From positions 13,330-77,329 of the forward strand of contig JACPCU010000009.1 in assembly GCA_016184315.1 (NCBI GenBank): a stretch of DNA of 64,000 bases, in the 5' to 3' direction. The position numbers were made by a program, and so were the translations under genes. Within the stretch, counting starts at the first letter, position 1. Every line of letters starts with the position of its first letter. Source of the DNA: Nitrososphaerota archaeon (GTDB lineage Archaea; Thermoproteota; Nitrososphaeria; Nitrososphaerales; JACQRY01). The notes below the pieces were generated by a model that saw only the letters and a program-made list of their open reading frames with translations, was not told the origin of the DNA and searched no databases. Below, piece by piece: positions 7,131-35,660 of the stretch.

Positions 7131-8360
7131 ATGGTCAACACCGTGACTGCCGCGTCTCTGATTGCTCTTATCGTCGCAGCTGCGTCATTTGGCTACGCTA
7201 GTTTTGCTGTTTCAGGAGAAGCAGGGCAGCTCAGAACCCAGATTAAGCAGATCGATCAGAACTTGGCAACGGTTCAGAAGGATATCGGTGAGTTGAAGAG
7301 CAGCCTCCAGAGGTCCTTGGAGGAGACTAGGAAGATAGCTGCTGAAAGAGAGGCGCTCATACAGCAGATAACGCCCTTCGATCCTGCTCTTGTGGCGGCT
7401 GCGATCAAGGAAGGTGGTCTTACTATCTACTCGGTCAGAGATCAGGAGGACATAGTGGTGCTGTCACAGGAATTTCAGAAGAAGTTTCCGGGCATAAAGG
7501 TGAGTTTCTTTAATGCTAGGGAGCTTGAGCTTCTGGCTAGGATCACTGCGGAAGCGAAGCAGTCTCAGTCCACTTGGGATATCTATGATGCTGGCGCTAG
7601 GGTTTTGGGTGCTGCTGCGAACATAGGTGCTACTCAACGTTACGTGTCTAAGCAGTATACTCCGGAGAACTTTCCTATTGTTGATCCTGATAGGTTCTTT
7701 TATGGTGCGACGATCCCGGTGATGATCTATAATCCTAAGCTGGTGAAGAAGAGTGACTTGGATGCGGTTAAGACGTGGGAGGATGTTCCTAAGCTGGCTG
7801 CTAAGTATCAGGGTAAGGTCCTTATGGATCATCCGACGCGTCTAGGTTCGCATACTCAGATTCTGGGTGAATTGAAGAGTTATTGGAAGGATGATTCGAG
7901 GTGGAGCAAGTATCTGGGCGAGCTGAAGGCTCTTGGCGCAAGGATGTTCAAGAGTACTGGTGAGATTGGGCGGCTCATTATTTCTGAGGAGGGCTCTATT
8001 GGCATAGTGGGCTTGCTGCACGATGTGTTGCAGGCTAGGGTCAGAGGCAGCCCCCTTGAATTCATGCCTGTGTCTCCTCTTGTGGTGCAGCCTTTTGGGG
8101 TTGTCATCTCCAAGAACGCGCCTCACCCCAATTCTGCGAAACTGTTGGTCGAGTTCATGCTGAGCCCTGACGGTCAAGAAGTCTTCTCCAGGGCTTTCCG
8201 TTCACCTATGAGGACTGGGTTTGTCTCCAAATCTTCTGGCAGCGTGCTCTTCCCGAATGTTCCTTCGAACCAGATAATTGGCACCTTGAATCAGGAGCTC
8301 CTCGCAGATCCGCAGGACTTCGCCAAAAGGTATCTTGAGCCTGTTTTCGGGCCTGCTTGA
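7131..8360 (+). CDS. membrane-anchored ABC-transporter solute-binding protein (family 1, iron(III)-type fold likely)
   Basis: 409 aa. It has an N-terminal TM helix, then a coiled-coil linker, then a periplasmic-binding-protein-like body (SVRDQEDIVVLSQEFQKKFPGIKV, TWDIYDAG). No permease or ATPase genes are adjacent. Confidence 0.55.
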   Translation: MVNTVTAASLIALIVAAASFGYASFAVSGEAGQLRTQIKQIDQNLATVQKDIGELKSSLQRSLEETRKIAAEREALIQQITPFDPALVAAAIKEGGLTIYSVRDQEDIVVLSQEFQKKFPGIKVSFFNARELELLARITAEAKQSQSTWDIYDAGARVLGAAANIGATQRYVSKQYTPENFPIVDPDRFFYGATIPVMIYNPKLVKKSDLDAVKTWEDVPKLAAKYQGKVLMDHPTRLGSHTQILGELKSYWKDDSRWSKYLGELKALGARMFKSTGEIGRLIISEEGSIGIVGLLHDVLQARVRGSPLEFMPVSPLVVQPFGVVISKNAPHPNSAKLLVEFMLSPDGQEVFSRAFRSPMRTGFVSKSSGSVLFPNVPSNQIIGTLNQELLADPQDFAKRYLEPVFGPA

Positions 8361-8648
8361 AGGATAGGTTCAGGTTCCTAGGTTGACCATCTAGGCTGTG
8401 AGCTTGTTCTACTGCATAGTCTGAGGGGGATGGATCATGTTCCGGGGATTGAGCCTCTTAACTCTGTTATGTGTAAGCGCTGTTGAATTCCCGGGGTTTG
8501 CCGGTTTTCACACGCTGGCAAAGAACTGGTCTAGGGGGGCTATATAATGCGGGCAAAGCGAAGACGCCCCTATGCTTGAGCAGAAACGTTGTTTTGGAAA
8601 CTAAGCTGTTGACATCAGCTAATAGTATTAGTATATCTCTAGTGCTAG

Positions 8649-9164
8649 ATGTTTCGGAGTTGGATGGCTCTGTCGGGGCAAGGAGAGTTCAGTTTGATGC
8701 CGGTGGGTGTTGTTAGGACCAAATCTTCTGATGAAGAGGTTCGTGGTTGGGATCATAGCTATGAGTCCATAGTTGAGATTCTTCCCGAGTTTGAGGGTGC
8801 TTTGGATGGGTTGGATGGTTATTCGCATCTCTTCGTGCTGTGTTTCTTGAACAGGGTTAGTCCTGAGGATAGGACGACTCTCAAAGTGAGGCCTAGAAGG
8901 CTTCTGCGTAAGGGTTTCAAGCTTGAGGATCTTCCTTTGAAGGGTGTCTTCGCGTTGGATTCGCCTGTTAGGCCGAATCCTATTGGGTTGAGTTTGGTGA
9001 AACTGGTTCGCAGGGAGGGTAGGATGCTGGTGGTTGAAGGCTTGGATTACTTTGATGGCACTCCTGTGCTGGATGTGAAGCCGTATCAGCCTGAGCATAG
9101 GGTTGAGGAGGTTAGTGTTCCGGAGTGGTATCAGGATCTGAGGGATAGGGCTGGTCGAATCTAG
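8649..9164 (+). CDS. trmO: TsaA/TrmO-family tRNA methyltransferase
   Basis: 171 aa. YSHLFVLCFLN, RPNPIGLSLVKLV and LDGTPVLDVKPY are hallmark segments of the TsaA/UPF0066 family. The start may be an internal Met. Confidence 0.75.
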   Translation: MFRSWMALSGQGEFSLMPVGVVRTKSSDEEVRGWDHSYESIVEILPEFEGALDGLDGYSHLFVLCFLNRVSPEDRTTLKVRPRRLLRKGFKLEDLPLKGVFALDSPVRPNPIGLSLVKLVRREGRMLVVEGLDYFDGTPVLDVKPYQPEHRVEEVSVPEWYQDLRDRAGRI

Positions 9165-13189: not shown

Positions 13190-13668
13190 CTTTTCAGATT
13201 TGATAACTCCTTGGTCGGTGATGCATCCAAGACGTTCTACAGAGAGATCAAGCCGATCACTGAAAGGTATGTCCAGAGCGCCTTAGAGGTCTCCGGCTTA
13301 TCGCTGGACAAACTCAACAAAACTGGGGATGAACCTGCAACTGCCATGCGTGATTTCGAGGGCTGGATAAATTCAGCCTCAAATGGCAGACGGCCTGTTT
13401 TTGTTGCATTCAACGCGACCTTCGACTGGATGTTCGTAGCATACTACTTCCACAGATTCCTCGGCCGCAACCCCTTCGGAATAAGCGGTCTGGACATCAA
13501 AGCATACTACATGGGAATGCTTGGGACGAGCTGGGGCGGAACCATAAAGAGAAAAATAGACAAGAGATTTCTATCAGGGCGAAGACATACTCATAACGCG
13601 CTGGACGACGCTATTAAAAGGCCGAAATCTTCGGCAAGATGCTTGAATACGGAAGGAAAGGAGATTAA
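13190..13668 (+). pseudogene. DEDDh 3'-5' exonuclease remnant (N-terminal Exo I motif missing; -1 frameshift in an A-run)
   Basis: FNATFDWMFVAYYF and HNALDDA (Exo II/III) are present. No DxE Exo I motif is present, and a TAG at 13187-13189 closes the frame. After DDAIK (A4 run 13616-13619) the natural C-terminus AEIFGKMLEYGRKGD* continues in the -1 frame. Confidence 0.6.
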
Positions 13669-23718: not shown

Positions 23719-24813
23719 ATGAAGCAACACAGAATCCCCGTTAACAAAGTAACCATCGTAACCTACCCAGATGAGTTCGCAAAGCGGGAAATCCAAGAGC
23801 TTGCAAGGACCGCCGGCTATACAGTTGAAGCTGTAGTCACACAGAAACAGGTCATCAAATCTGAATACGGTGTAGGCGTAGGTAAGGCAGAAGAGCTCCA
23901 AACAATGGTCCGTGAAAACGGGTCCACCACAATCATTGTCGACGAGCGGCTTACGTCTTCGCAGGCGTACAAGCTCTCGAAAAAAACACTCGTGGATGTT
24001 GTCGATCGCGAGAGGCTTATCCTCGACATATTCGCGCAAAGAGCCCATACTCCAGAGGCGAAGCTTCAGGTGCAACTGGCCAACCTTCAATACGAGATGC
24101 CCCGGGCTAGGGACAGCGTTCGTTACTCTGTGAAGGGAGAAAGAGCTGGATTTTCGGGAATGGGAGAGACGGCAGTTGACATCAAGTTCAGAGACCTAAA
24201 ACGCCAAAAAGTTCTGATTAATCAGAAACTTGCAAAAGCTCGTCTCCAAAGGACTCTGCATAGGACTGAAAGGCGAAAGCTTTCGATGCCTTTTGTCTCC
24301 CTCGCAGGTTACACGAGCAGCGGAAAGACGGCGCTTTTCAACAGGCTCGCCTCAGAGTCAAAGGAGGAATCTCCTAAGCTTTTCACAACTCTGACCACGA
24401 CGACGCGCGCCGTGAGTCTTTCAGATTCCGGAAAAAAAGTGATGCTGTCCGACACTGTAGGCTTTGTTTCGAGGCTACCAACATACATGGTAGAATCATT
24501 CAAATCAACACTGGAGGAACTCAGTTACGCCGACCTTGTTCTGCTCTTGATTGACGTGAGCGAAGAAATAGAAAGCATTAGGATAAAGCTGGAATGCTGC
24601 AAAGACATTCTGAACCAGCTGGAGGTCAGTCCCAACAAGATCCTGTTCGCTCTGAATAAGATCGACCTTCTGAAAGAGGCTGCTTGGGAACAGATTGAGG
24701 AGAATGGCCTCTTCGACGGGCTCCCTTACGTCAAGATCTCCGCATTAAGAGGAGATGGGCTACGCCAGCTGAAGAACCGCGTGATAGAACAGACCAGCAG
24801 AGTAGAAAAGTAG
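23719..24813 (+). CDS. hflX: GTPase HflX
   Basis: 364 aa. The HflX N-domain is followed by G1 GYTSSGKTALFNRL, G3 DTVGF and G4 NKID. Confidence 0.85.
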   Translation: MKQHRIPVNKVTIVTYPDEFAKREIQELARTAGYTVEAVVTQKQVIKSEYGVGVGKAEELQTMVRENGSTTIIVDERLTSSQAYKLSKKTLVDVVDRERLILDIFAQRAHTPEAKLQVQLANLQYEMPRARDSVRYSVKGERAGFSGMGETAVDIKFRDLKRQKVLINQKLAKARLQRTLHRTERRKLSMPFVSLAGYTSSGKTALFNRLASESKEESPKLFTTLTTTTRAVSLSDSGKKVMLSDTVGFVSRLPTYMVESFKSTLEELSYADLVLLLIDVSEEIESIRIKLECCKDILNQLEVSPNKILFALNKIDLLKEAAWEQIEENGLFDGLPYVKISALRGDGLRQLKNRVIEQTSRVEK

Positions 24814-24992: not shown

Positions 24993-25322
24993 ATGTCAGT
25001 ACAGGAATATAGTAGCACAAAAACATGGGTCGCGCAACTGGTTCAACAGCGGCCTCATATGACCGTGCAGAACTACTTATGGGGGCTCCAAGTCTTTTGC
25101 GACTGGGCCAAGAAGAATCCCGATGAGCTTGTATTAGAAAGACAGGGAGAAATGACTGGAGAACCTGAACCTCTTGAAGCTCAGGCATCCAAACGGATTC
25201 TGAGTTTTCAAGCAAACGGTAAACTGAAGACGAAACACAGTAGGGAAATGATAGTCACCGCGCTTGCTTCGTTCTATGAGAACAACAAGGTAGGCCTGCA
25301 AGCACAAGCCCGGAAACAATAG
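24993..25322 (+). pseudogene. possible N-terminal (SAM-like domain) fragment of a tyrosine integrase
   Basis: 109 aa. The pattern TVQNYLWGLQVFCDWAKKNPDEL...IVTALASFYENN resembles integrase N-terminal core-binding domains. No catalytic domain follows. It lies 88 nt from the tRNA 3' end. Confidence 0.3.
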
Positions 25323-25409: not shown

Positions 25410-25587
25410 TGGGGCCGGTGGGATTTGAACCCACGATCGCCAGCGCACTGGGCGCACCGAGCGCACCCCAGGTTCACCGCGCAGATGCTCTGGTATCCTA
25501 TTGGCGGACTCACCTAGACCAAGTTATCCGTATGTTTCTGTCCGACCTAGATAGGTAGACAGTGGCATTACTCTAGACGACGGCCCC
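25410..25587 (-). tRNA. intron-containing tRNA, isotype unresolved (Pro-like acceptor; 178 nt)
   Basis: Minus-strand read: acceptor GGGGCCG/CGGCCCC, discriminator A, T-arm GTGGG-TTCAAAT-CCCAC. The D-arm GTCTAG...CTTGGTCTAGGT is split by a 49-nt insert. About 54 further extra nt lie between the D-arm and T-arm. A CUGGGGU heptamer is present, but I could not pair a clean anticodon stem. Confidence 0.6.
25573..25587. repeat. att core, tRNA-proximal copy (ctagacgacggcccc)
   Basis: Exact 15-mer shared with 34004-34018. It corresponds to tRNA positions 1-15. Confidence 0.65.
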
Positions 25588-25621: not shown

Positions 25622-26041
25622 TTAGGAAGGTCTTCCATTACGGAGAAATTGTAGCTTTTGTAGGTCTCTATAGGCCCCTCTTATGTCGCCCTTAAGTAAT
25701 CTTCCAGGCGCAAATATACGGAGTCGCTTCTTGTGCTTTTTTGATACGGGGAGTTTCTTTCGTACTACCGCATTATATTTTCTCATGATGCGTTCTTCAG
25801 CTTTGGTAACTTTTCCAGCATTTGTTCTGTTCGCCTTATCCGCCACAGGCTGTAGGGAGAAAACTGCATTTTGTAGTCTACCAGACGCAAGATGGATAAT
25901 AGCATCCTCAATATGACATTGTAAAGTGGTGTCTAGTAAATATCTGAACCGATTTAATAAGACGCCAAAAAAGTCGTGCGCTACGGGATCATGTTCAACA
26001 ACACATTTCTGACATTGTATACCTTTGGGAGCCAAGGGCAT
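25622..26041 (-). CDS. hypothetical protein (139 aa), element-borne
   Basis: ORF with an N-terminal CQKC...H.. cluster and a basic C-terminus. I recognise no family. Confidence 0.4.
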   Translation of the reverse strand: MPLAPKGIQCQKCVVEHDPVAHDFFGVLLNRFRYLLDTTLQCHIEDAIIHLASGRLQNAVFSLQPVADKANRTNAGKVTKAEERIMRKYNAVVRKKLPVSKKHKKRLRIFAPGRLLKGDIRGAYRDLQKLQFLRNGRPS

Positions 26042-26084
26042 CTTTTTGTGTCAGGAGGCTCGCCTTTATGGTTATTCCTCGTCT

Positions 26085-26366
26085 TTATCGATCGGCTGCC
26101 CCTTTTTTACCTTTAGATGTTCTATGACGTGCGGTGCGGGAGGCTTCACGAGGTTTAGGGGAGTTAGGTAAAGGTAGAGGCTTCGTTTTACCCACGTAGT
26201 GCCATCTGATACGAGTCGATTTGGCTTTAGACGGATCGTAAGAGTAGTGTGCTACGTACCTGTACTGGTATTCCTTCCCGTAATTATTGCGGACGGTCTT
26301 GGTCTGTATGCTGCCCTGCTCCCCGCATCGCGGGCATCTGATCGAGGCTTCTGCTTCCATGTCCAT
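26085..26366 (-). CDS. zinc-ribbon, basic-tailed small protein (93 aa)
   Basis: It has a CPRCGEQGS motif, then a beta-rich core and a lysine/arginine-rich tail. It is likely DNA-binding. Confidence 0.45.
   Translation of the reverse strand: MDMEAEASIRCPRCGEQGSIQTKTVRNNYGKEYQYRYVAHYSYDPSKAKSTRIRWHYVGKTKPLPLPNSPKPREASRTARHRTSKGKKGAADR
26163..26174. repeat. extra copy of the element motif gttaggtaaagg (inside the 93-aa ORF)
   Basis: Exact 12-mer shared with 26380-26391 and 31770-31781, and in inverted form with 26403-26414. Confidence 0.5.
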
Positions 26367-26725: not shown

Positions 26726-26981
26726 CTGGGTTAATACAAAGGGGTTTTGCTATTTACTACTACTACCCTTAAGCCTTAATAATATCTTCCGCTATTATAT
26801 TGATTGGAATAACTGTTCGCCGCCCTTAATTGGTGCGGCTTGCTGCCCGTTTCATCGGGTGGCGTTGTTGCGGCCTCATTCATGGGGATTCGTGACATTT
26901 TCTACCTTTAGGTCTACCTCCTGACGAGCCTATGTGATAGGCGAAACCATCGTATCATAATTGGATGGTCGAGGTATCATT

Positions 26982-27131
26982 ATGAAGTCAACTGTAATAC
27001 GGGCTTTTACTCTGCCTAGGGAGCTGGATGATGCCCTAAAAGCGTCGATTCCTAAAGGTGAGCGAAGTCGCGTTGTAAGTGAAGCGATCCGAGTAGCATT
27101 AATCACTAGCGGAGGTGAAGGCGGACGGTAG
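26982..27131 (+). CDS. ribbon-helix-helix (CopG/Arc-like) protein, 49 aa, not in the ORF track
   Basis: Hand translation gives MKSTVIRAFTLPRELDDALKASIPKGERSRVVSEAIRVALITSGGEGGR. It has the beta-strand/helix/helix pattern typical of RHH repressors. Confidence 0.55.
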   Translation: MKSTVIRAFTLPRELDDALKASIPKGERSRVVSEAIRVALITSGGEGGR

Positions 27132-27553
27132 GATTAGGGCTTACCCCCGAAGACGCAAGGGGATATCTAGATACCTTATCTTATATCAAGACGCATGGCC
27201 TCTTTACGCACGACAAGGAGCTTGCACTAATCGAGTCTGAGATCTTCCATGCGCCGAATGAGCTAAAGGATTTAGCTACGTACACCACTTCTCCCTCTGG
27301 AGGAGAGTCTAGGCGTTACGGTAGTTACAACGGCGTCCCCTCTGTACTCGTAACTGAAGTGAAGGTGGACGACGGTGGCAATCCTACCCTTATTCGTAAT
27401 CGAGTCGAGCCGTGGGCTGATCTTACGGATAGGGATGCTCGACGATTAACGTTTGCCATCAGGTCGCTTCTAGGAAGGTATCCTCTGGAAACGCGCACAA
27501 AGACTCTGTACCGCGACGATTTTGACCTTGCTGGCAGGCCTTTGCAGGGTTAA
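27119..27553 (+). CDS. hypothetical protein; frame open from 27119 but first canonical start is GTG 27359
   Basis: The open frame reads ...LTPEDARGYLDTLSYIKTHGLFTHDKELALIESEIFHAPNELKDL... with no ATG/GTG/TTG before 27359. It overlaps the RHH stop by 13 nt in the -1 frame. Confidence 0.35.
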   Translation, partial: RRTVGLGLTPEDARGYLDTLSYIKTHGLFTHDKELALIESEIFHAPNELKDLATYTTSPSGGESRRYGSYNGVPSVLVTEVKVDDGGNPTLIRNRVEPWADLTDRDARRLTFAIRSLLGRYPLETRTKTLYRDDFDLAGRPLQG

Positions 27554-27567
27554 GGGGTAGATTTACG

Positions 27568-28485
27568 ATGAGGAATTACTTAAAAGGTCAATCAGAGGTA
27601 TTTACGGAGGTCAAGGGCGATTCTAAGGGTGTAGATGAGGATATAACGATTAGAGGTGTCCTTTTAACGTTAGGGGCAAAAAATGCCAACGGTTGGGCTA
27701 TTAGGCCACAGGACGGGGATTATTTAATCGAGGCTCTGCGTGGCTTACCCCTCCGATCGACCCATAGCGAAGACCCTATGTCAACCTACGGTAAGATCAT
27801 CGATGCATGGCGAGAGGGAGATACCATCTTCTACCGAGCAAACGTATTCGGCAACGACAGTAAAGCATTAAGAATTATTCGTGAAGGTCTAGCGAAATCT
27901 GTTAGCATAGCAGTCGAGTTCAGTAAAACGGTCTGCAGCTCCTGCGGTAAGTTGGCTAGAGATAATCAGGAACCTAACCTCTTACAACACCTCTGTGAAA
28001 ACGCCCATGAATTGGTCATCGATCCTAAGCCGTATGAAGTAAGTCTCGTCTCATTTCCCGCATACAAGGAGTCATCCATTTCGGTGGCAGGTAAGAAGCA
28101 GCGTAGTCTAGTAAATCTACTCGATAGGCTCGATACGGTTACGAATGATTTACTTAGGAAGCGAAGGGAGGCGGACGGTAAGGGTAAACCTGAAACACTA
28201 CCCGATAGTCCTGAGGACGATCAGGACGATGCCCCCGTTACTCGTAAAGGTAAGAGTGGATCATCGTTGCTTGATAAGACTAACTGGAAACGTCCAAGGG
28301 AGGAGAAACCCGTTACGGTGGGGCCGACTCCCTCTATGATTAACATGCACAGTTTCAGGGAGGCCGAGTCGGCGTACAGGGCTAAGGAGATTTTAGAGAG
28401 CGTCGATATTTTCGGAAAAGAGAGAATACTCCTTGTTGACCCCCTTATGGCTGAACTGAGGAAGGTTAAGGCTAGGAAACAGTAA
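27568..28485 (+). CDS. HK97-family prohead (capsid maturation) serine protease-like protein with an acidic/basic C-terminal extension
   Basis: 305 aa. LPLRSTHSEDPMSTYGKII fits the His motif context, LAKSVSIAVEF fits the G-x-S-x-G-F-like Ser motif, and YEVSLVSFPAYKESS fits the E-v-S-l-V..PA motif. A CSSCGK...HLC insert lies between motifs. Confidence 0.6.
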   Translation: MRNYLKGQSEVFTEVKGDSKGVDEDITIRGVLLTLGAKNANGWAIRPQDGDYLIEALRGLPLRSTHSEDPMSTYGKIIDAWREGDTIFYRANVFGNDSKALRIIREGLAKSVSIAVEFSKTVCSSCGKLARDNQEPNLLQHLCENAHELVIDPKPYEVSLVSFPAYKESSISVAGKKQRSLVNLLDRLDTVTNDLLRKRREADGKGKPETLPDSPEDDQDDAPVTRKGKSGSSLLDKTNWKRPREEKPVTVGPTPSMINMHSFREAESAYRAKEILESVDIFGKERILLVDPLMAELRKVKARKQ

Positions 28486-28505: not shown

Positions 28506-28721
28506 TTGGATACATTAAGCGGTTATCTCAAGGAATTCGAGATGCGTAAGGAACTGGAAACTCTTGCACGCAAAGGGCAGAAGCGGATCAGCCTACAGCC
28601 CAGTTCCCCAGAGTTCATAGACGAAATGCAGGGTTTAACAGAGGATATGAGGCGTAGAATGAGGCAGGGGTTAGACGGAGCCTTCGCTGAGTTGAACAGG
28701 GTAGCTGAACCCTTTGATTAG
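28506..28721 (+). CDS. hypothetical helical protein (71 aa)
   Basis: ORF directly downstream of the protease. It is charged and helical. Confidence 0.35.
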   Translation: MDTLSGYLKEFEMRKELETLARKGQKRISLQPSSPEFIDEMQGLTEDMRRRMRQGLDGAFAELNRVAEPFD

Positions 28722-28848
28722 TGACATAGGCAGATGGCTATCTGGGCTGGCAAAGTCTAGGAGCCATTACGCCTGCCCAGCATGCGGCAAAACGTTCTCC
28801 CTCGAAGTACAGTACGTTCAGCATAAAAGGGATTTTCCTACGCACTAA
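28714..28848 (+). CDS. possible tiny C2H2 zinc-finger ORF (44 aa, TTG start)
   Basis: Hand translation gives ...SRSHYACPACGKTFSLEVQYVQHKRDFPTH*. The start codon is uncertain. Confidence 0.25.
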   Translation: MISDIGRWLSGLAKSRSHYACPACGKTFSLEVQYVQHKRDFPTH

Positions 28849-28953: not shown

Positions 28954-28970
28954 CTAATCGACGGGTTTCT
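28954..28970. repeat. 17-bp direct repeat flanking the IS, left copy (ctaatcgacgggtttct)
   Basis: Identical to 30015-30031. Confidence 0.75.
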
Positions 28971-30014
28971 ATCTTATCCCTAAATCATTTCCTCCCCTAC
29001 TCAAGAGACTTCACAAGCTGATCAGATACGTTAGACTGAGCGAGTTTTGGATCAGCCTATGGAGGAGGCATGGACATGCTGTGCTGGATGAGAAGCAGGT
29101 CGAGTGGATCATCAAAGCCAAGATCCAGGGGAAGAGGAACATGGACATCGCCGACGCTATGGGGATATCCTCCAGAAGGGTCAGACAGCTCTACTCCCAA
29201 TACAGGAAGACGGGAGCAATACCAGTCCTCAGGAAGCCTGGTAGGCATAGGGCTCCTGAGGTCACTGTGTATGAGAGGGAGGTCATCAAGGAGGCTTATG
29301 GGAGGTTCAGGATGTGCGCCTGCTACCTTGAGAAGATACTCTCAGCTCATGGGGTACGTATCAACCATAAGAGGATTCACAGGGTGTTGAGGGAGGAGGG
29401 ATATGCATTGAATGAGCCTAGGAAGCAGCGTAGGAGGAAGTGGATACGCTACGAGAGGGAGCACTCCAATTCACTCTGGCATACCGATTGGCACCGGATC
29501 AAGGATCCCAGATGGAGGGGCCAGTGGCTCATAGCCTACGAGGATGACGCATCCAGGTTCATCACGGGCTTTGGGGTATATCCAACCTTGACATCAAGAT
29601 CCTCGGTGGAGGTGTTCGACAGGGCTGTGAGGAGGTATGGTAAGCCGAGATCCATACTCTCAGACCATGGGACAACATTCTACGCGGTGGAGGCAGAGTC
29701 TAGGGAGAAGGGGTTGACGGAGTTCGAAAAGTATCTGTTGAAGAACAAGATCAGGTTCATCATGGGTAGAGTGGATCATCCTCAAACCAACGGTAAGATA
29801 GAGAAGTTCTTCGACATCTTCGAGAAGAAGGTCAGATACTTCCAGTCAGTAGAGGAGTTCATGGAGTGGTACAACTGCGAGAGACCCCATGGAGCATTCG
29901 ACCTGTCAAAGCTGGAGACACCAGTACAGATCTTCTACAAGAGGATGGAGGACCGAGAGCAGCTAACCGACCCGGACACAATACCTAGGGAGGAAATGAT
30001 TCTGTGATAAAACA
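28971..30014 (+). mobile_element. IS481-like insertion sequence (1044 bp) with imperfect ~22-bp terminal inverted repeats
   Basis: IRL atcttatccctaaatcatttcc matches the reverse complement of 29992-30014 (tgttttatcacagaatcatttcc) at 17 of 22 positions. It has a single DDE ORF whose stop lies inside IRR, and it is flanked by 17-bp direct repeats. Confidence 0.7.
29081..30007 (+). CDS. DDE (rve/integrase-core) transposase with N-terminal HTH
   Basis: 308 aa. The HTH is MDIADAMGISSRRVRQLY. The catalytic D is in WHTDW, the second D in ILSDHG, and the E in HPQTNGKIEKF. The C-terminal YNCERPHGA is typical of IS481/IS3-type rve domains. Confidence 0.85.
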   Translation: MLDEKQVEWIIKAKIQGKRNMDIADAMGISSRRVRQLYSQYRKTGAIPVLRKPGRHRAPEVTVYEREVIKEAYGRFRMCACYLEKILSAHGVRINHKRIHRVLREEGYALNEPRKQRRRKWIRYEREHSNSLWHTDWHRIKDPRWRGQWLIAYEDDASRFITGFGVYPTLTSRSSVEVFDRAVRRYGKPRSILSDHGTTFYAVEAESREKGLTEFEKYLLKNKIRFIMGRVDHPQTNGKIEKFFDIFEKKVRYFQSVEEFMEWYNCERPHGAFDLSKLETPVQIFYKRMEDREQLTDPDTIPREEMIL

Positions 30015-30031
30015 CTAATCGACGGGTTTCT
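30015..30031. repeat. 17-bp direct repeat flanking the IS, right copy
   Basis: Identical to 28954-28970. Confidence 0.75.
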
Positions 30032-30136: not shown

Positions 30137-31144
30137 ATGATAAAGCCAGAAGGGCGAAACAATGATAGTCATTCCCTAGCGGATAAGATAACCCCTAAGC
30201 GGTTTAACCAGTTAATTAAGAAGTTATCCTCAGATTGTATCGAGCTATGGGAAAAATATTACCCGCCCCTTAAGGATGATACTGGCGCCCCTGTTCCTAC
30301 CAAACTCAGTGCCCGTATCCAAGGGGAGATCGGGGAAGACGCTGTCTATGAGTATGCTCTACTACCCTTTCATAAAGCATCGAGCATCGTTCGCAACGAC
30401 TGTACCATCAGGCGAGCCAAGGGAGGCGCTGATTTCTACGTTAATATTGGAGGCAAGATGGTTTTGGTAGAGGTAAAGAATCTCAACCCAGATTCATACA
30501 TCACACCAGCTTGGGCAGAAAGCCACATAATCAGCCGTTTCGAGATTAGTCGCAACCTACCAGACGTTGCGGAGCGCATAGTTATCATAATAGGAGCGAA
30601 CAACACGAGGTGGTATCCAGTAGAAAAAGCCCTACTAAAACATAGCATAAAACTACTACATTTACCCTGCCTACCTAGTATAAATGATACTAATGAGGAG
30701 CGTAAGAGGATCATACAGTCCTTCCGTGAGAGGTATTATGTTATAGTAGCTCATCTACTTCATAACCACGTGTATTTTACTAGTAGCACTAAGGTTATAG
30801 ACGATGTTCTTAGGGTATCTAACATTAGCTTAAGGCCCTGCGATAAGGGTTTACCTACCGGTCGCGGGCCCCCAGATGCCTTTTTACCGTTTGGATCGGA
30901 TGTAGCTGCCCAGCGTAAGCTACTGGAGGGGTATATGCAAATGCCTCAGATGCATGTACGCGTTACCAGCGGTTTTTTCGATGCATATTTACGAGCATCC
31001 ATGCATTCTTTCGGCTGGAGCGATGGGGGACTGGCCTCCTTATACGGCTCTCTCATTAGGAAAACATCCATGAGAGGAGCCTTTCCTAATTATCCTACCG
31101 CTCCTACAGTTCCTACGAGATGCATTACGCTTGCAGGGGTCTAA
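30137..31144 (+). CDS. PD-(D/E)xK-like nuclease-fold protein (N-terminal ~200 aa); C-terminal half of doubtful coding quality
   Basis: GEIGEDAVYEYAL...GGADFYVNIGGKMVLVEVKN gives a D...E-x-K arrangement like restriction-endonuclease-fold proteins. The C-terminal 130 aa has no recognisable features. Confidence 0.4.
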   Translation: MIKPEGRNNDSHSLADKITPKRFNQLIKKLSSDCIELWEKYYPPLKDDTGAPVPTKLSARIQGEIGEDAVYEYALLPFHKASSIVRNDCTIRRAKGGADFYVNIGGKMVLVEVKNLNPDSYITPAWAESHIISRFEISRNLPDVAERIVIIIGANNTRWYPVEKALLKHSIKLLHLPCLPSINDTNEERKRIIQSFRERYYVIVAHLLHNHVYFTSSTKVIDDVLRVSNISLRPCDKGLPTGRGPPDAFLPFGSDVAAQRKLLEGYMQMPQMHVRVTSGFFDAYLRASMHSFGWSDGGLASLYGSLIRKTSMRGAFPNYPTAPTVPTRCITLAGV

Positions 31145-31579: not shown

Positions 31580-31774
31580 ATGAAGCCTATTAATCCCCCT
31601 GTGGGAATTGACATAGATACTGTAGCTGGGCAGGAATGGCTCCTGCACCGTATAGCTGAGATACTGGCTACGGAGCATGATCTTACTACCCTAGACATGA
31701 AACGCCTCCGCCTCCTGAAGCAGGTAACGAGAGAGCGATTAAGGGTTATGCTGGCCAGCGGATCAGTTAGTTAG
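31580..31774 (+). CDS. hypothetical protein (64 aa)
   Basis: ORF only. Its 3' end carries the element motif. Confidence 0.3.
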   Translation: MKPINPPVGIDIDTVAGQEWLLHRIAEILATEHDLTTLDMKRLRLLKQVTRERLRVMLASGSVS

Positions 31775-31781
31775 GTAAAGG
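31770..31781. repeat. copy of the element motif gttaggtaaagg just upstream of ORF 31789
   Basis: The 15-mer tagttaggtaaagga is shared with 26377-26391. Confidence 0.5.
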
Positions 31782-31788
31782 ATTATTC

Positions 31789-32190
31789 ATGAGTGAAGAT
31801 GAGCCAAGCCCTACACGACAATGGGTAACTAAGGCCCTTAAAGCTAAAGGATGGACTGAGCAACAGATCGCGGATAGCTACAAGCCCGGCAGCGATAAGA
31901 TAGCCCTTATGAATGAGGCAAGATTACGTAAGAAACAGGAACGCCAGCAAGCCCTAGAGAAGATCGACAGCTACGAAGGGCTACTCAACATGACAAAGCT
32001 ACTCCTACAGGACGTATTACGAGAGCTCAGCAAAAATAAGAGCATCAGCCAAGCCGATAAGCGGAAGCTACGGTATTACAAGATAGCCTGCTCCCTAGTA
32101 AACAGCGCGAAGCAAACATCCGCGCTGCGCAACCAAGAGGCTCTAAGGAAACGGTTAGACGCGTTAGAGCAGCGCATAGAAAAAGCCTAG
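31789..32190 (+). CDS. hypothetical coiled-coil protein (133 aa)
   Basis: Charged helical repeats (KKQERQQALEKIDSYEGLL..., RKRLDALEQRIEKA). Confidence 0.4.
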   Translation: MSEDEPSPTRQWVTKALKAKGWTEQQIADSYKPGSDKIALMNEARLRKKQERQQALEKIDSYEGLLNMTKLLLQDVLRELSKNKSISQADKRKLRYYKIACSLVNSAKQTSALRNQEALRKRLDALEQRIEKA

Positions 32191-32263
32191 ACCAAACTTA
32201 CGTAATTAAGCGTGAATAAAGTTACTTAACTGGCTTACTACCATACCTTAGGGGGTAAGCAAT

Positions 32264-32557
32264 ATGGGAGGTGCGTTTTCGGCGCTGACGACCCTGATCC
32301 TCCTAATTAGTGGAATAGTCATGGTTCTACAGGGTGACTGGCTCTTAGGATGGATGCTAGTGATAGGGGGCACCATAGTAGGCGCAATCGGGAAGGCTTC
32401 GCGATCTAAACCTTCGCGATCGAGAGGCACGTCGCCGCCTTCTGCCGGGAAGTCGAGAACATCTCAAGAATGGCTTGAGGCTCTAAGGCTTAGACTTGCG
32501 AAAGGCGAGATAACAAAGGAGCAGTATGAAGAGTTAAGGAAAACGCTTAGTGAATGA
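32264..32557 (+). CDS. small membrane protein with a C-terminal SHOCT-like domain
   Basis: 97 aa. It has two TM segments, then EWLEALRLRLAKGEITKEQYEELRKTL, which fits the SHOCT consensus. Confidence 0.5.
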   Translation: MGGAFSALTTLILLISGIVMVLQGDWLLGWMLVIGGTIVGAIGKASRSKPSRSRGTSPPSAGKSRTSQEWLEALRLRLAKGEITKEQYEELRKTLSE

Positions 32558-32563
32558 GCTTTC

Positions 32564-33952
32564 CTAAGAGCGTATGATCTCCACTACTGCCTTATCCGAG
32601 TTCAACGCGCTTACGAAGCGAGCCTTCCCGCCGTTCACGAGGCGCTTCGCCTCCTTCACGGAGACTATCTTTTGCCTACTTACAGGGACTGTATGATGAT
32701 TAGCCCCCTTGCCTACCCGCAAATTTGTTGCTTCGACTTCCCGCTCCACTTGCTCTGAGACACGGTGCGCGATCCCGTATCGGAACACTACTTCACGCCG
32801 ATACTTCCCAAGCCTACGCCAATACTCCCCTAACTCTTCTACCGTCATCTTATCCAGCTCTTCGTTATCCTTCTGAAACTCTTCAAATAGAGGTGTGTTA
32901 GCTTCGGTATATTCGGCGAGCTCCGCACTGAGGATTTGACAGTTCATTTGCAGCGCCCTTCGATAAATCAACGCTTCAACATCCTGCCGTGATATCTCCG
33001 GAGGGGAAGTTAGGATCGTTAACCGCTTCTCCGCCTTAAGATACTCTTGCTTCAACTGATCATCCGTTAATCTAAGATACGCAGCGTCTAAACCGAACTT
33101 ATGCCCCATGAATAGCTCCACAATGCCCCGATCGACCCCGGCGGATAGCATCTGTGAGAAAAAGTATTTCCTGAAACTGTGAGGGTGGATCTGCTGTCTT
33201 TTACTGTCGGCATCCATTTTTCCCAACAGCCCGGCTTTCTCCACAGCCCTCATAACCTGCCGATAAGACGCATCAGTGGTCAACCTTACCTTAGGGTTGC
33301 CTTCATTAAAAAATACGTACTGATCTAACTGCTTGATGCGGTCGCCGAGCCACTCCTTAAGAAAGCCACTTGTCTCGTCTGTAACATATACAGTTCTACC
33401 CTTCCTTGTCTTCGTAAACCTAGCTTGCAGCCTGATGCTAGTCGGCTTGGAGGTAAAGTCGATGTCGCCCACCCTTAAGCCGGTAGCTTCGCCGAGACGC
33501 ATACCGCTACTCGCTAGGAGGGTAACAAGAGCCTTAGCCCGCAGACCGCATCTTAGAACTATACTCCGTAGCTCCTCCTGTGTAGGCGCTCTATCCATGC
33601 TTACCTCGTAGTTCGCTGGCAACACAATTCGGTTCTTTAGTCGTGCCAGATCCAGCGGAATCCCTTCGCTCAGCAAGAACCCCTTAACTGCCCCATAATA
33701 CGTCCTGATAGTCTTCGGCGACTTACCCTTTCCAACCAAATAGCCGATGTATTTATCCAAAGCTTCGTAAGGATCGAGCTTCCCATCTCGGATAACCTCG
33801 ATCACCACATCCACATCCTTGTAACCAAGGCTTCGGCCCCAAACCCTCAGCGCCCCCTCATATGTCTCAGCCGTCTTTTCGCTACGCCTCGCCTTACGCT
33901 CCCGGTAATCCTCCGCTCCCAAACCCCACTTAAACCTCCTAACTAGCATCAA
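32564..33952 (-). CDS. tyrosine recombinase (phage/plasmid-type integrase), intact
   Basis: 462 aa. It has an N-terminal SAM-like domain. Catalytic residues are SSGMRLGEATGLRVGDI (Arg), HPHSFRKYF (HxxR) and FMGHKFGLDAAYL (His...Tyr). The likely true start is the ATG at 33949. Confidence 0.85.
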   Translation of the reverse strand: MMLVRRFKWGLGAEDYRERKARRSEKTAETYEGALRVWGRSLGYKDVDVVIEVIRDGKLDPYEALDKYIGYLVGKGKSPKTIRTYYGAVKGFLLSEGIPLDLARLKNRIVLPANYEVSMDRAPTQEELRSIVLRCGLRAKALVTLLASSGMRLGEATGLRVGDIDFTSKPTSIRLQARFTKTRKGRTVYVTDETSGFLKEWLGDRIKQLDQYVFFNEGNPKVRLTTDASYRQVMRAVEKAGLLGKMDADSKRQQIHPHSFRKYFFSQMLSAGVDRGIVELFMGHKFGLDAAYLRLTDDQLKQEYLKAEKRLTILTSPPEISRQDVEALIYRRALQMNCQILSAELAEYTEANTPLFEEFQKDNEELDKMTVEELGEYWRRLGKYRREVVFRYGIAHRVSEQVEREVEATNLRVGKGANHHTVPVSRQKIVSVKEAKRLVNGGKARFVSALNSDKAVVEIIRS

Positions 33953-34003: not shown

Positions 34004-34018
34004 CTAGACGACGGCCCC
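34004..34018. repeat. att core, integrase-proximal copy (ctagacgacggcccc)
   Basis: Exact 15-mer shared with 25573-25587. On the minus strand it is followed by D-loop-like CTTGGTTTAGAGG, and preceded by an AT-rich promoter-like flank (attaata ~35 nt upstream). Confidence 0.65.
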
Positions 34019-34070: not shown

Positions 34071-35660
34071 CTAATGGGTGTCGAAGATTTCTTGGAACTT
34101 CGCTATCCTGTCGACAATCGTCTGCTTCTCCGCTGAACTTGGGTTTCTAGGATCCTTAGCCTTAGGCAGCCTTCCGAGCTTCAGCATGGAAGCCATGAGG
34201 AGGTATCTTGCTTTGTTGCAGTCCAGATTGTTTCCTTCAATTGTCAAGTCCTTAGGGTTGGTTTCCACTATTCCACCAGGATCGCTTCGCCCGACTCTGA
34301 CTACTGGGAGTCCGCTTAAGGCTGCTATTTGAAGGGCTTTTGCTTGAGAGTTGGATCCTGTTGCGTAAGGTGATGTTCCTTCAAGGACAAACCCGTGGAG
34401 CTTGGGTTTCGCGTCGTCAGGGCTGCGCTGCTCAATCAACGCCTTATTGATTCTGGCGACTATGTCTACCTCCTGATCAGGATCTTCGGTTTCATCTTCC
34501 TGTGAATATGCGCCGTATTTCACTATGTGCACCCTAGGTATCACTTCCCGCCTTAACGTGCCGTCAGGATTCTTGACTTGAATCGAGGCAGTGTTTCCCG
34601 CTGCAGTATCGAGGAATTCAACTTTGTCAGGTAGCTTCTTCAGGTTAACCTCTGACGTTGAAGTATGCTTGTAGCTGGGTCTATACCAAATAGTTGCGGC
34701 AGACTTCACAGTTCCAAGGATGCCGCCGTGTCCACCTGTCGCCTTATAGTTCCCAGGCCGGTCATCAGCCTTCTTAAAATCTCTCGCCGCGTAGATCCGC
34801 TGATCCTGTATCCCTACCGCGCCCAGCCCTCTCCCCTTACCAGACGCTATGTAGGTAACTGCGTCAACCAAGTTTCTATCACCATCGTTGGCAAGCTGCC
34901 CATGCATTCTCTGAGAAGCATTACCAACTATCGGCAGATCAGTGTCGATGATGATGTTAAGCCAGTAAAGCGTCTCCTCGATGTGGGGGCTTCCCTCCAG
35001 CCAGATGGCTCCCTCATATCCACCTGTGTCAATAGTCTTCTGAACAGTGTTCGCCACTCTAGCTAAATCCCCTGTCCTCACACTCTTAGCCAATGCACCG
35101 GGTTTGTAGGGAAAATAGTCGATGCCAGCTACCTCCCCTTTCTTCCGGTGTCCTCCCGGCGGAAGAACTCTGACAAAATCATAGTCAGCCATACGGTCCA
35201 GTATGCTGCCCTCACCGTGCTCGCTCCGCCCCGAAATCGTTCTGTCGATATCCATGAAGATTCTTGAAGCATCCGGATAGAATCCCTGCCTCCCACCATA
35301 GTTCAATGCAGCATTCTCCAAGTCCCCTGCTTCAAAAGGCACACCATTCTTGGAGCCATCTCCACGCCTAGCCATGTAGGGGAGAAGATAGGGCCCGTCT
35401 TCAGGCTTCAGCGTTACCTCATAGTAGTCTTTACCATCATCATGGTAGACCTCTGACGCATCTTCCTCCAAAGGATGAGCACTAAACTTCTTGATTCTGA
35501 CTGTCACCGGCTCGTAAAGGGTCTGTGCCACAATGTGGTCGAAGCGGCCCGGTACCACGCGCTCACCCGACAGCCTAGCCTTGTTGCTTGTGACTAGCGG
35601 AGGAGAGTTGGCGAGCGTAGCCCTAGAACCAGAGAAAACAGCTATTCGAGGTTTAGCCAT
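34071..35660 (-). CDS. divergent asparaginase/glutaminase-fold protein with a large insertion
   Basis: 529 aa. IAVFSGSRATLANS aligns to the TGGTIA motif. GAIWLEGSPHIEETLYWLN aligns to HGTDTMEET. HGFVLEGTSPYATGS...GLPVVRVGRS aligns to the C-domain motifs. Confidence 0.55.
   Translation of the reverse strand: MAKPRIAVFSGSRATLANSPPLVTSNKARLSGERVVPGRFDHIVAQTLYEPVTVRIKKFSAHPLEEDASEVYHDDGKDYYEVTLKPEDGPYLLPYMARRGDGSKNGVPFEAGDLENAALNYGGRQGFYPDASRIFMDIDRTISGRSEHGEGSILDRMADYDFVRVLPPGGHRKKGEVAGIDYFPYKPGALAKSVRTGDLARVANTVQKTIDTGGYEGAIWLEGSPHIEETLYWLNIIIDTDLPIVGNASQRMHGQLANDGDRNLVDAVTYIASGKGRGLGAVGIQDQRIYAARDFKKADDRPGNYKATGGHGGILGTVKSAATIWYRPSYKHTSTSEVNLKKLPDKVEFLDTAAGNTASIQVKNPDGTLRREVIPRVHIVKYGAYSQEDETEDPDQEVDIVARINKALIEQRSPDDAKPKLHGFVLEGTSPYATGSNSQAKALQIAALSGLPVVRVGRSDPGGIVETNPKDLTIEGNNLDCNKARYLLMASMLKLGRLPKAKDPRNPSSAEKQTIVDRIAKFQEIFDTH

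Follow-up and report, generated by a model that had tools for sequence, protein, structure and literature searches.

The 64,000-nucleotide stretch of DNA analyzed here (the window; positions 13,330 to 77,329 of contig JACPCU010000009.1, assembly GCA_016184315.1) stems from an uncultured archaeon of the Nitrososphaerota and contains, at positions 27568–28485 of the forward strand including the stop codon, a gene with an ATG start that encodes a protein of 305 amino acids (aa). According to sequence comparison and structural modeling, this protein is a prohead serine protease of the HK97/S78 type that belongs to a divergent subfamily; its molecular identity is secure, and its catalytic activity is predicted. 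The gene sits in a mobile element integrated at a tRNA gene, as is evident from an integrase gene, a pair of attachment (att) repeats, the overlap of one of these repeats with the tRNA gene, and cellular genes on both flanks. Within the window the protease is an orphan in cis. The most economical reading, in which we place moderate confidence, is that of a cryptic integrated element, which would be either a shrunken head-tailed provirus or a small element that captured a protease gene.

A preliminary description of the locus, made from the nucleotide sequence, had proposed an HK97-type S78 prohead protease. This proposal is borne out by profile–profile alignment and by fold searches; family models applied to the single sequence remain below their thresholds. 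Pfam Peptidase_S78 (PF04586) gave 14.6 bits against a cutoff of 21, and NCBIfam TIGR01543 (proheadase_HK97) 15.3 bits against a cutoff of 59. The PHROG 80 family ("head maturation protease") matches with E 4.3e-6. All three matches are limited to the last motif region onward, and only five of 30 relatives reach PF04586 at E < 0.01. Neither the single protein nor either of the two profiles found anything relevant in sequence searches of the Protein Data Bank (PDB), and solved structures were reached via fold search only. When a profile of 35 subfamily members was aligned by hhalign to a reference set composed of HK97 gp4 plus eight classical S78 proteases taken from annotated phages, the match extended over 126 columns with a probability of 94.3% and E 1.1e-7. 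In this register His66, Ser113, and Glu157/Ser159 stand opposite the invariant His65, Ser114, and Glu141/Ser143 of HK97. The three motif blocks that had been considered legible were recovered as LRSTH66SED...YG75KI, KSVS113IAVEF, and YE157VS159LVSFPAY, and they coincide with positions that at least 80% of 80 relatives conserve. The predicted catalytic codons at 27763–27765 (His66), 27904–27906 (Ser113), and 28036–28038 (Glu157; all on the forward strand) specify residues conserved in 97–99% of these relatives, and the extended set of His66, Ser113, and Glu157/Ser159/Pro164/Ala165 is conserved in 90–100%. The protease domain has 15 positions with this degree of conservation, and the window protein keeps each of them (15/15).

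The protease domain comprises residues 21–175 (27628–28092, forward strand), as delimited by the predicted local distance difference test (pLDDT), by conservation in the 80 relatives, and by the alignment to HK97 gp4. For these residues, an AlphaFold2 model based on 42 sequences reaches block-mean pLDDT values of mostly 82–98; in the Cys/His insert discussed below (residues 131–140), the value drops to 60. In a Foldseek search of the PDB, the best 50 matches listed were all herpesvirus assemblins or T4 gp21 (E 2e-4 to 5e-3); the T4 gp21 structure 5jbl reached a template modeling (TM) score of 0.56, normalized to the target, at 20–21% identity. A fold search of BFVD gave 209 matches at E ≤ 1e-3, the top ones being prohead proteases with E values down to 4e-14. 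Nearly all named BFVD matches are annotated as prohead protease, COG3740 head maturation protease, or major capsid protein of ~490–570 aa, and we read the last of these as protease–capsid fusions. We base the HK97/S78 assignment on the profile–profile match together with the fold matches in the PDB, the matches to viral models, and the 15 conserved positions.

In an exhaustive phmmer search, 1.84 billion representative proteins were screened; 91 relatives reached E ≤ 1e-3, and 29 of these reached E ≤ 1e-10. The best relative has E 3.8e-25 and 42% identity, and the matches always span residues ~20–176. Because of these 91 relatives, the ORF (open reading frame) at 27568–28485 is no chance reading. 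In the word-indexed homolog search, the single protein found itself only and the full-length alignment was swamped by low-complexity tails; the alignment trimmed to the domain worked. In the deposited annotation, Met71 is taken as the start (235 aa, P0001), 70 codons too late, so that positions 27568–27777 are dropped and the catalytic His66 is lost. Since homology begins at about residue 20–26 and takes in His66, the reading of 305 aa is correct and that of 235 aa is not. The 305-aa form was also called independently on read-set assemblies (P0131), and the corrected start restores a real prohead protease with its catalytic histidine.

Between the strand that carries the nucleophile and the E-x-S-x-V motif, the protein contains a Cys/His insert with the pattern C123-x2-C126...H141-x-C143 (27934–27996, forward strand), which is a putative zinc knuckle. 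The hhalign alignment places this segment of 15–20 residues opposite a gap in the classical S78 proteases: HK97 gp4 and its eight classical relatives lack the insert, and the motif occurs in 0/9 of them. Among the subfamily sequences, by contrast, 81/81 have the first CxxC. Their second ligand pair takes several forms, namely [HC]xC in 50 of the 81, CPxC in a distinct clade, and other His/Cys pairs in the remainder. A bacterial branch of the subfamily, found in metagenome-assembled genomes (MAGs) of Chloroflexota and Dokdonella, possesses the Cys/His insert as well. The segment had been noted as an extra feature of this gene; it is indeed an insertion relative to classical S78 proteases, but it is not peculiar to the window gene, because the CxxC recurs in all 81 relatives, some of which are located in genuine archaeal-virus head modules. 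Judging from these sequences, the insert is a signature of a subfamily of at least 90 sequence clusters. With its four ligands, the knuckle most likely binds zinc and braces a hairpin, and it might contribute to stability or regulate activation inside the procapsid. No description of a Cys/His knuckle in S78 proteases was found in the searchable literature.

The remaining residues 176–305 (28093–28482, forward strand) form a charged C-terminal tail that ends in DPLMAELRKVKARKQ. The structure prediction gives a long helix (residues 176–202), ~55 disordered residues, and two further helices (260–278 and 290–304). The tails of three relatives (P0002, P0003, and P0016) comprise roughly 160–220 aa and are often rich in Glu and Lys, compared with ~130 aa in the window protein. 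In many relatives the C-terminus consists of a P-(D/E)-W-x-x-E-L-x-x-A-x-K-K-like motif. The C-terminus of HK97 gp4 targets this protease into the prohead. By analogy, the tail of the window protein probably serves as a scaffold and as a capsid-docking peptide; a scaffold or targeting role had been suggested before, and whereas the charged tail is plainly present, the role is assigned from the HK97 gp4 precedent. Among the related head modules that we inspected, none had a recognizable separate scaffolding gene between portal and capsid.

As far as can be told from sequence, the Cys/His-knuckle subfamily is found mainly in archaeal tailed viruses. A canonical head module surrounds the subfamily gene in five loci, whereas two integrase-carrying loci have a large-terminase neighborhood instead. 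The closest relative with a head module, P0002 (42% identity to the window protein), is part of the series terminase, portal, small ORFs, protease, cement, and Phage_capsid. P0016 (35% identity) is followed by cement and capsid genes, and so is P0092 (28% identity), which has a terminase gene nearby. Upstream of P0093 (27% identity) there are a weak terminase match and, where the portal gene would be expected, an unannotated ORF of 490 aa; downstream, one small reverse-strand ORF lies between the protease and the capsid gene, and no cement match was obtained. The fifth locus is that of Methanobacterium virus PhiF1, whose ORF17 (MK994522.1, 16020–17096; positions 7938–9014 of our locus L001) is located three genes upstream of a "putative capsid protein" and was matched in the phage database with E 4e-4 and 27.6% identity over residues 26–173. 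This ORF is annotated as "hypothetical protein," yet it is a member of the Cys/His-knuckle prohead protease subfamily.

Of the two integrase-carrying loci, the one encoding P0003 (39% identity) is a provirus integrated in an archaeal chromosome (L024, 4693–19076; ENA ERZ25039519 contig_20768). Here the integrase gene is followed at some distance by the protease, three small ORFs, the large terminase and, further on, a baseplate-like gene; no capsid gene was identified at this locus. The other, encoding P0004 (39% identity), is an integrase-carrying contig of 9.2 kb (L026, 1–9217, and L027; Logan SRR29366193 and SRR29366189), on which a tail-less protease precedes a large terminase whose ATPase and nuclease parts are encoded by separate ORFs; an HNH gene follows, and genes resembling restriction–modification systems are also present. 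No capsid or portal gene was recognized within these 9.2 kb, and neither att repeats nor a tRNA were found at L026. This contig may represent a partial-module element of the satellite type. A rough neighbor-joining tree places the window protein together with P0026, P0002, and P0004. The genes that the two integrase-linked loci have in common with the window element are confined to the protease and the integrase, the latter being 26–28% identical.

The element around the window gene measures 8,431 bp, of which 7,370 bp remain when an IS481-like insertion is subtracted, and contains about 13 small genes. It is bounded by a direct repeat of 15 bp, CTAGACGACGGCCCC. The left copy (attL, 25573–25587) equals the first 15 nt of a tRNA gene, and the right copy (attR, 34004–34018) is located 52 nt beyond the start codon of the integrase gene. 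These 15 nt are the longest exact repeat that the tRNA region shares with any other part of the window, the next longest having 11 nt, and we estimate the chance of an exact 15-mer match between the two short regions at ~2e-5. The tRNA gene that served as integration target (25410–25587, reverse strand) has an intervening sequence of ~100 nt and was detected with Rfam RF00005 at 30.3 bits against a gathering score of 29. Its acceptor and T-arm ends are visible; the gene was missed by ARAGORN. The att repeat is situated at the 5′ end of the tRNA gene and not at the usual 3′ end. The tyrosine integrase (32564–33952, reverse strand; 462 aa) has a full-length catalytic domain and matches NCBIfam XerA_Arch (1.4e-31, positions 10–263 of 263), Pfam Phage_integrase (6e-25), and PHROG 1 (1.7e-34). 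Just outside the repeats, cellular genes resume with HflX on the left and, on the right, a 529-aa asparaginase-domain protein, an archaeal CCA-adding enzyme, and a 2′-5′ RNA ligase. The preliminary description had been right in calling the protease an orphan in cis, but it had missed the surrounding tRNA-integrated element with its own integrase and its 15-bp att repeats.

To search for partner genes, we took four related loci and used 23 of their proteins (terminase, portal, cement, capsid, and accessory) as tblastn queries; nothing credible was found in the 64-kb window, the sensitivity of such searches being low at this degree of divergence. The best match, with E 0.026, was on a housekeeping gene, and a further 18 proteins from L024 and L026 had no counterpart in the window either. 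The window contains 56 ORFs of at least 150 aa, several of which overlap on opposite strands; 46 of them were scanned, and about ten had no match. The scanned ORFs that matched a family are archaeal housekeeping genes, for example a polyprenyl synthetase, TerC, a pair of HMG-CoA synthase and thiolase, a TyrRS/TrpRS-type synthetase, adenylosuccinate synthetase, CTP-dependent riboflavin kinase, and DUF373. Between the HflX gene (23719–24813) and the transposase of the IS (insertion sequence), the protease is the sole ORF of at least 150 aa. The only ORF that is long enough for a capsid protein is an orphan ORF of 335 aa beyond the IS (30137–31144, forward strand). It had no match in Pfam, PHROG, NCBIfam, the PDB, or the phage and plasmid collections, and its single-sequence structure model reached a pLDDT of 35. 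The 335-aa ORF is therefore not recognizable as a capsid protein, and it may still have a capsid fold; we read its D...E-V-K pattern as PD-(D/E)xK-like, which would suggest a nuclease-like protein. Family scans recognized no small terminase, replication gene, or packaging signal in the element. The earlier statement that no capsid gene adjoins the protease is consistent with these results, as tblastn found no trace of capsid, portal, or terminase in the 64 kb and none hidden in the neighboring small ORFs.

The IS481-like insertion (28971–30014, forward strand; 1,044 bp) encodes a transposase at 29081–30007 (NCBIfam IS481, 4.1e-50). It has inverted repeats of 23 nt (28974–28996 and 29988–30010) and is flanked by target duplications of 17 bp (28954–28970 and 30015–30031), which are unusually long. 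In silico removal of the IS leaves a spacer of 227 nt between a 44-aa ORF and the 335-aa ORF. Because no long ORF spans the junction after this removal, the insertion is intergenic and hides no disrupted capsid gene, as had been reconstructed previously. Its reported distance of 250 nt applies when counted from the 71-aa ORF downstream of the protease, whereas the distance from the protease stop codon is 486 nt.

The other ORFs of the element are small and gave at best sub-threshold matches. Next to attL there are ORFs of 139 aa and 93 aa (25622–26366, reverse strand), the latter with a zinc ribbon; a PSV_ORF131-like match of 7e-4 was obtained here. A 99-aa orphan ORF is also part of the element. 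A ribbon-helix-helix (RHH)-like ORF of 56 aa (26961–27131, forward strand) matches Pfam RHH_1 with E 0.05. Directly upstream of the protease, a frame of 145 codons runs from stop to stop (27119–27553, forward strand). It had been listed as an ORF of about 145 aa, but its first start codon, at 27359, leaves only 64 aa; the size given for the 71-aa ORF downstream of the protease proved correct. The first 80 codons of the upstream frame are free of ATG, GTG, and TTG, and the frame overlaps the RHH-like ORF by 13 nt in the −1 frame relative to it. Both may be parts of one frameshifted gene of ~198 aa, which would be a sign of decay. Neither alone nor fused to the RHH-like ORF did the 145-codon frame have a family match. 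Downstream of the protease, the 71-aa ORF (28506–28721) and the 44-aa ORF (28714–28848), which is of the C2H2 zinc-finger type, are both on the forward strand and showed no similarity to the cement or capsid proteins of the related head modules. Three ORFs of 64, 133, and 97 aa (31580–32557, forward strand) precede the integrase; the 97-aa ORF has a SHOCT-like end (9e-5), and the other two had no match. The 133-aa ORF was considered as a small terminase, for which there was no support.

Two ORFs outside the element were also inspected. A 109-aa orphan ORF (24993–25322, forward strand) occupies the interval from HflX to the 3′ end of the tRNA gene. It was considered as the N-terminal fragment of a split integrase, a proposal that is unsupported (BLASTP against the integrase, E 3.3). 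On the other side, the gene of the asparaginase-domain protein (34071–35660, reverse strand) adjoins attR. A scan with this gene returned 59–68% identical genes in MAGs of Dehalococcoidia and Chloroflexota and in one MAG of Nitrososphaerales (66%). Because its other relatives are in Dehalococcoidia, the gene has, to judge from these sequences, probably been transferred horizontally between domains and is no reliable marker of lineage. The scan revealed no syntenic empty integration site, all loci returned being non-syntenic. The window itself, with ~49% G+C, is recognizable as archaeal by its archaeal-type CCA-adding enzyme, its genes of the mevalonate pathway, its CTP-dependent riboflavin kinase, and the tRNA gene with an intron.

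In four public read-set assemblies we found stretches with 100% identity to the window, always in the integrated form; such identical copies were the only ones in public data. A circular junction, an excised form, or an IS-free allele was found in none of the four. Since all contigs break at both ends of the IS (28998 and 29985), the IS is multi-copy and present in every sample. Peptide-pattern scans of 185,579 species-representative genomes, IMG/VR, and the JGI metagenome set detected no close relatives of the protease and none of the integrase, for which one distant match was obtained.

The tyrosine integrase inserted the element at the 5′ end of the tRNA gene and left the 15-bp att repeats. 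In the relatives, the C-terminal helix of the tail would dock the protein inside the assembling HK97-fold shell, and the His66/Ser113 site would then digest the tail and trim the capsid protein, as can be deduced from HK97 gp4 and T4 gp21. If the locus is a cryptic integrated element, the window protease would be inert unless a related virus supplies the capsid. The reading is supported by signs of decay, namely the inserted IS, the start-less frame that precedes the protease, the failure to recognize replication or packaging genes, and the lack of an excised form in the four read sets. Small cryptic integrated elements that possess only an integrase and short att sites (median 17 bp) are, moreover, the commonest class of integrated elements in Thaumarchaeota (Krupovic et al., 2019; PMC6563490). 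Some observations, however, count against a long-dead remnant. The protease is encoded by a fully intact ORF, and all 15 conserved domain positions as well as the docking-like C-terminal motif have been kept despite an identity of only ~40% to the nearest relatives. Furthermore, truncated pieces of portal, capsid, or terminase genes, which a remnant formed by simple deletion might retain, do not flank the protease in tblastn searches, which have low sensitivity at such divergence. Among the readings as a relic, a satellite, or a domesticated gene, that of a relic or cryptic element remains the most economical, although not decisively so.

The conserved features of the protease also count in favor of a satellite, an alternative that we consider possible and rather unlikely. 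In this case the 7.4-kb element would be a helper-dependent hitchhiker of an archaeal tailed virus, and its protease-scaffold protein would enter the procapsids of the helper via the conserved C-terminal helix. By analogy with known satellites, it might then redirect assembly to smaller shells that fit a genome of 7–8 kb, or sabotage the maturation of the helper. The element is compact and cleanly bounded, and it combines an intact integrase and regulator-like genes (RHH-like, zinc fingers) with a single morphogenesis gene whose protease domain and docking-like C-terminus show full conservation. The tail of 130 aa is also shorter than those of the three relatives compared above, and the second integrase-linked locus L026/L027 with its tail-less protease and split terminase hints that partial-module loci may recur, although the borders of L026 are not definable. 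On the other hand, no replication, small-terminase, or packaging-site feature was recognized, an IS has inserted within the element, and no helper is known. The genome, metagenome, and viral scans with the protease or the integrase revealed no sister elements, nor did the four read sets contain an excised form. To our knowledge, none of the bacterial satellites has a prohead protease as its sole capsid gene.

Intactness of the gene and conservation of its catalytic and docking residues would likewise be compatible with a dispersed or domesticated head module resembling a gene transfer agent (GTA), in which capsid, portal, and terminase are encoded elsewhere in the genome and the protease acts in trans. 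Loci of Thaumarchaeota that derive from head-tailed viruses and lack att sites or replication genes have been proposed to be GTA-like (PMC6563490). The window gene, however, is located in a mobile element that is bounded by att repeats and encodes an integrase, and not at a conserved chromosomal locus, and nothing virus-like was found in the other 55 kb of the window. The absence of a close homolog from the 185,579 species-representative genomes also argues against a conserved host function. We regard this alternative as improbable. Recruitment of the protease to a role outside capsids, e.g., as a toxin, as a defense effector, or in processing another protein of the element, would agree with the lack of a capsid partner and with the adjacent orphan small ORFs, but it is very improbable, as the scaffold-like tail and the C-terminal motif are kept in common with relatives of which some belong to true head modules, the neighboring ORFs gave only weak, sub-threshold family matches, and we know of no precedent for S78 proteases that act outside capsids.

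Whichever of these readings applies, the protease gene flags a small element integrated at a tRNA gene in an uncultured archaeon, and it draws attention to a sizeable S78 subfamily with a Cys/His knuckle that is missed at the current thresholds of Pfam and NCBIfam. Its frequency in the tailed viruses of Archaea could make this subfamily a useful marker when searching for these viruses or for what is left of them. HK97 gp4, the reference member of the family (MEROPS S78, PF04586, formerly U35; COG3740), and the window protein have the fold class and the order His, Ser, E-x-S-x-V-x-x-P-A in common, with an identity of ~13% in the profile alignment. Both also have a C-terminal extension after the protease domain, which is longer and more charged in the window protein. 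The head-module setting of HK97 gp4, with the capsid gene next door, is not found at the window gene; this is, however, a contextual expectation and not a molecular criterion of the family. Closer counterparts are the protease-scaffold genes of archaeal tailed viruses (PhiF1 ORF17, P0002, P0016, P0092, and P0093), which belong to the same subfamily with 27–42% identity and possess the same CxxC insert. The layout of a protease with a charged tail is common to these genes and the window gene, and a P-W-x-x-E-L-like C-terminus is also present in P0002, P0016, and P0092. In contrast, the viral genes are part of head modules, three of them near a terminase or portal gene, whereas the window gene is surrounded by orphan small ORFs.

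As a whole, the element resembles the archaeal cryptic integrated elements (Krupovic et al., 2019; PMC6563490), whose size range of 2.6–98 kb includes that of the window element. Insertion at a tRNA gene and a content of mostly orphan genes are alike in both, and the att length of 15 bp is close to their median of 17 bp. While the integrase is the sole broadly conserved gene of such elements, the one described here adds a single gene for virion morphogenesis.

A second comparison is with satellites that remodel the capsids of their helpers, such as Staphylococcus aureus pathogenicity islands (SaPIs) with CpmA/B, P4 with Sid, phage-inducible chromosomal island-like elements (PLEs) with TcaP, and capsid-forming phage-inducible chromosomal islands (cf-PICIs), which use scaffold-like proteins for size redirection or a full capsid set. 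By analogy, a small integrase-bearing island with a gene for capsid assembly and without a full virion module is found here, too. According to a preprint of 2025, the only archaeal satellites described up to then were pSSVx and pSSVi, both of which are linked to spindle viruses (10.1101/2025.02.15.638363); for tailed viruses of Archaea, no satellite is known. If the element did prove to be a satellite, it would be the first satellite of tailed viruses in Archaea and would extend virus-on-virus parasitism to that group. It would also be the first satellite type whose sole capsid gene is a prohead protease: where SaPIs, P4, PLEs, and cf-PICIs employ dedicated scaffold-like proteins or a full capsid set, the element in the window has a lone prohead protease.

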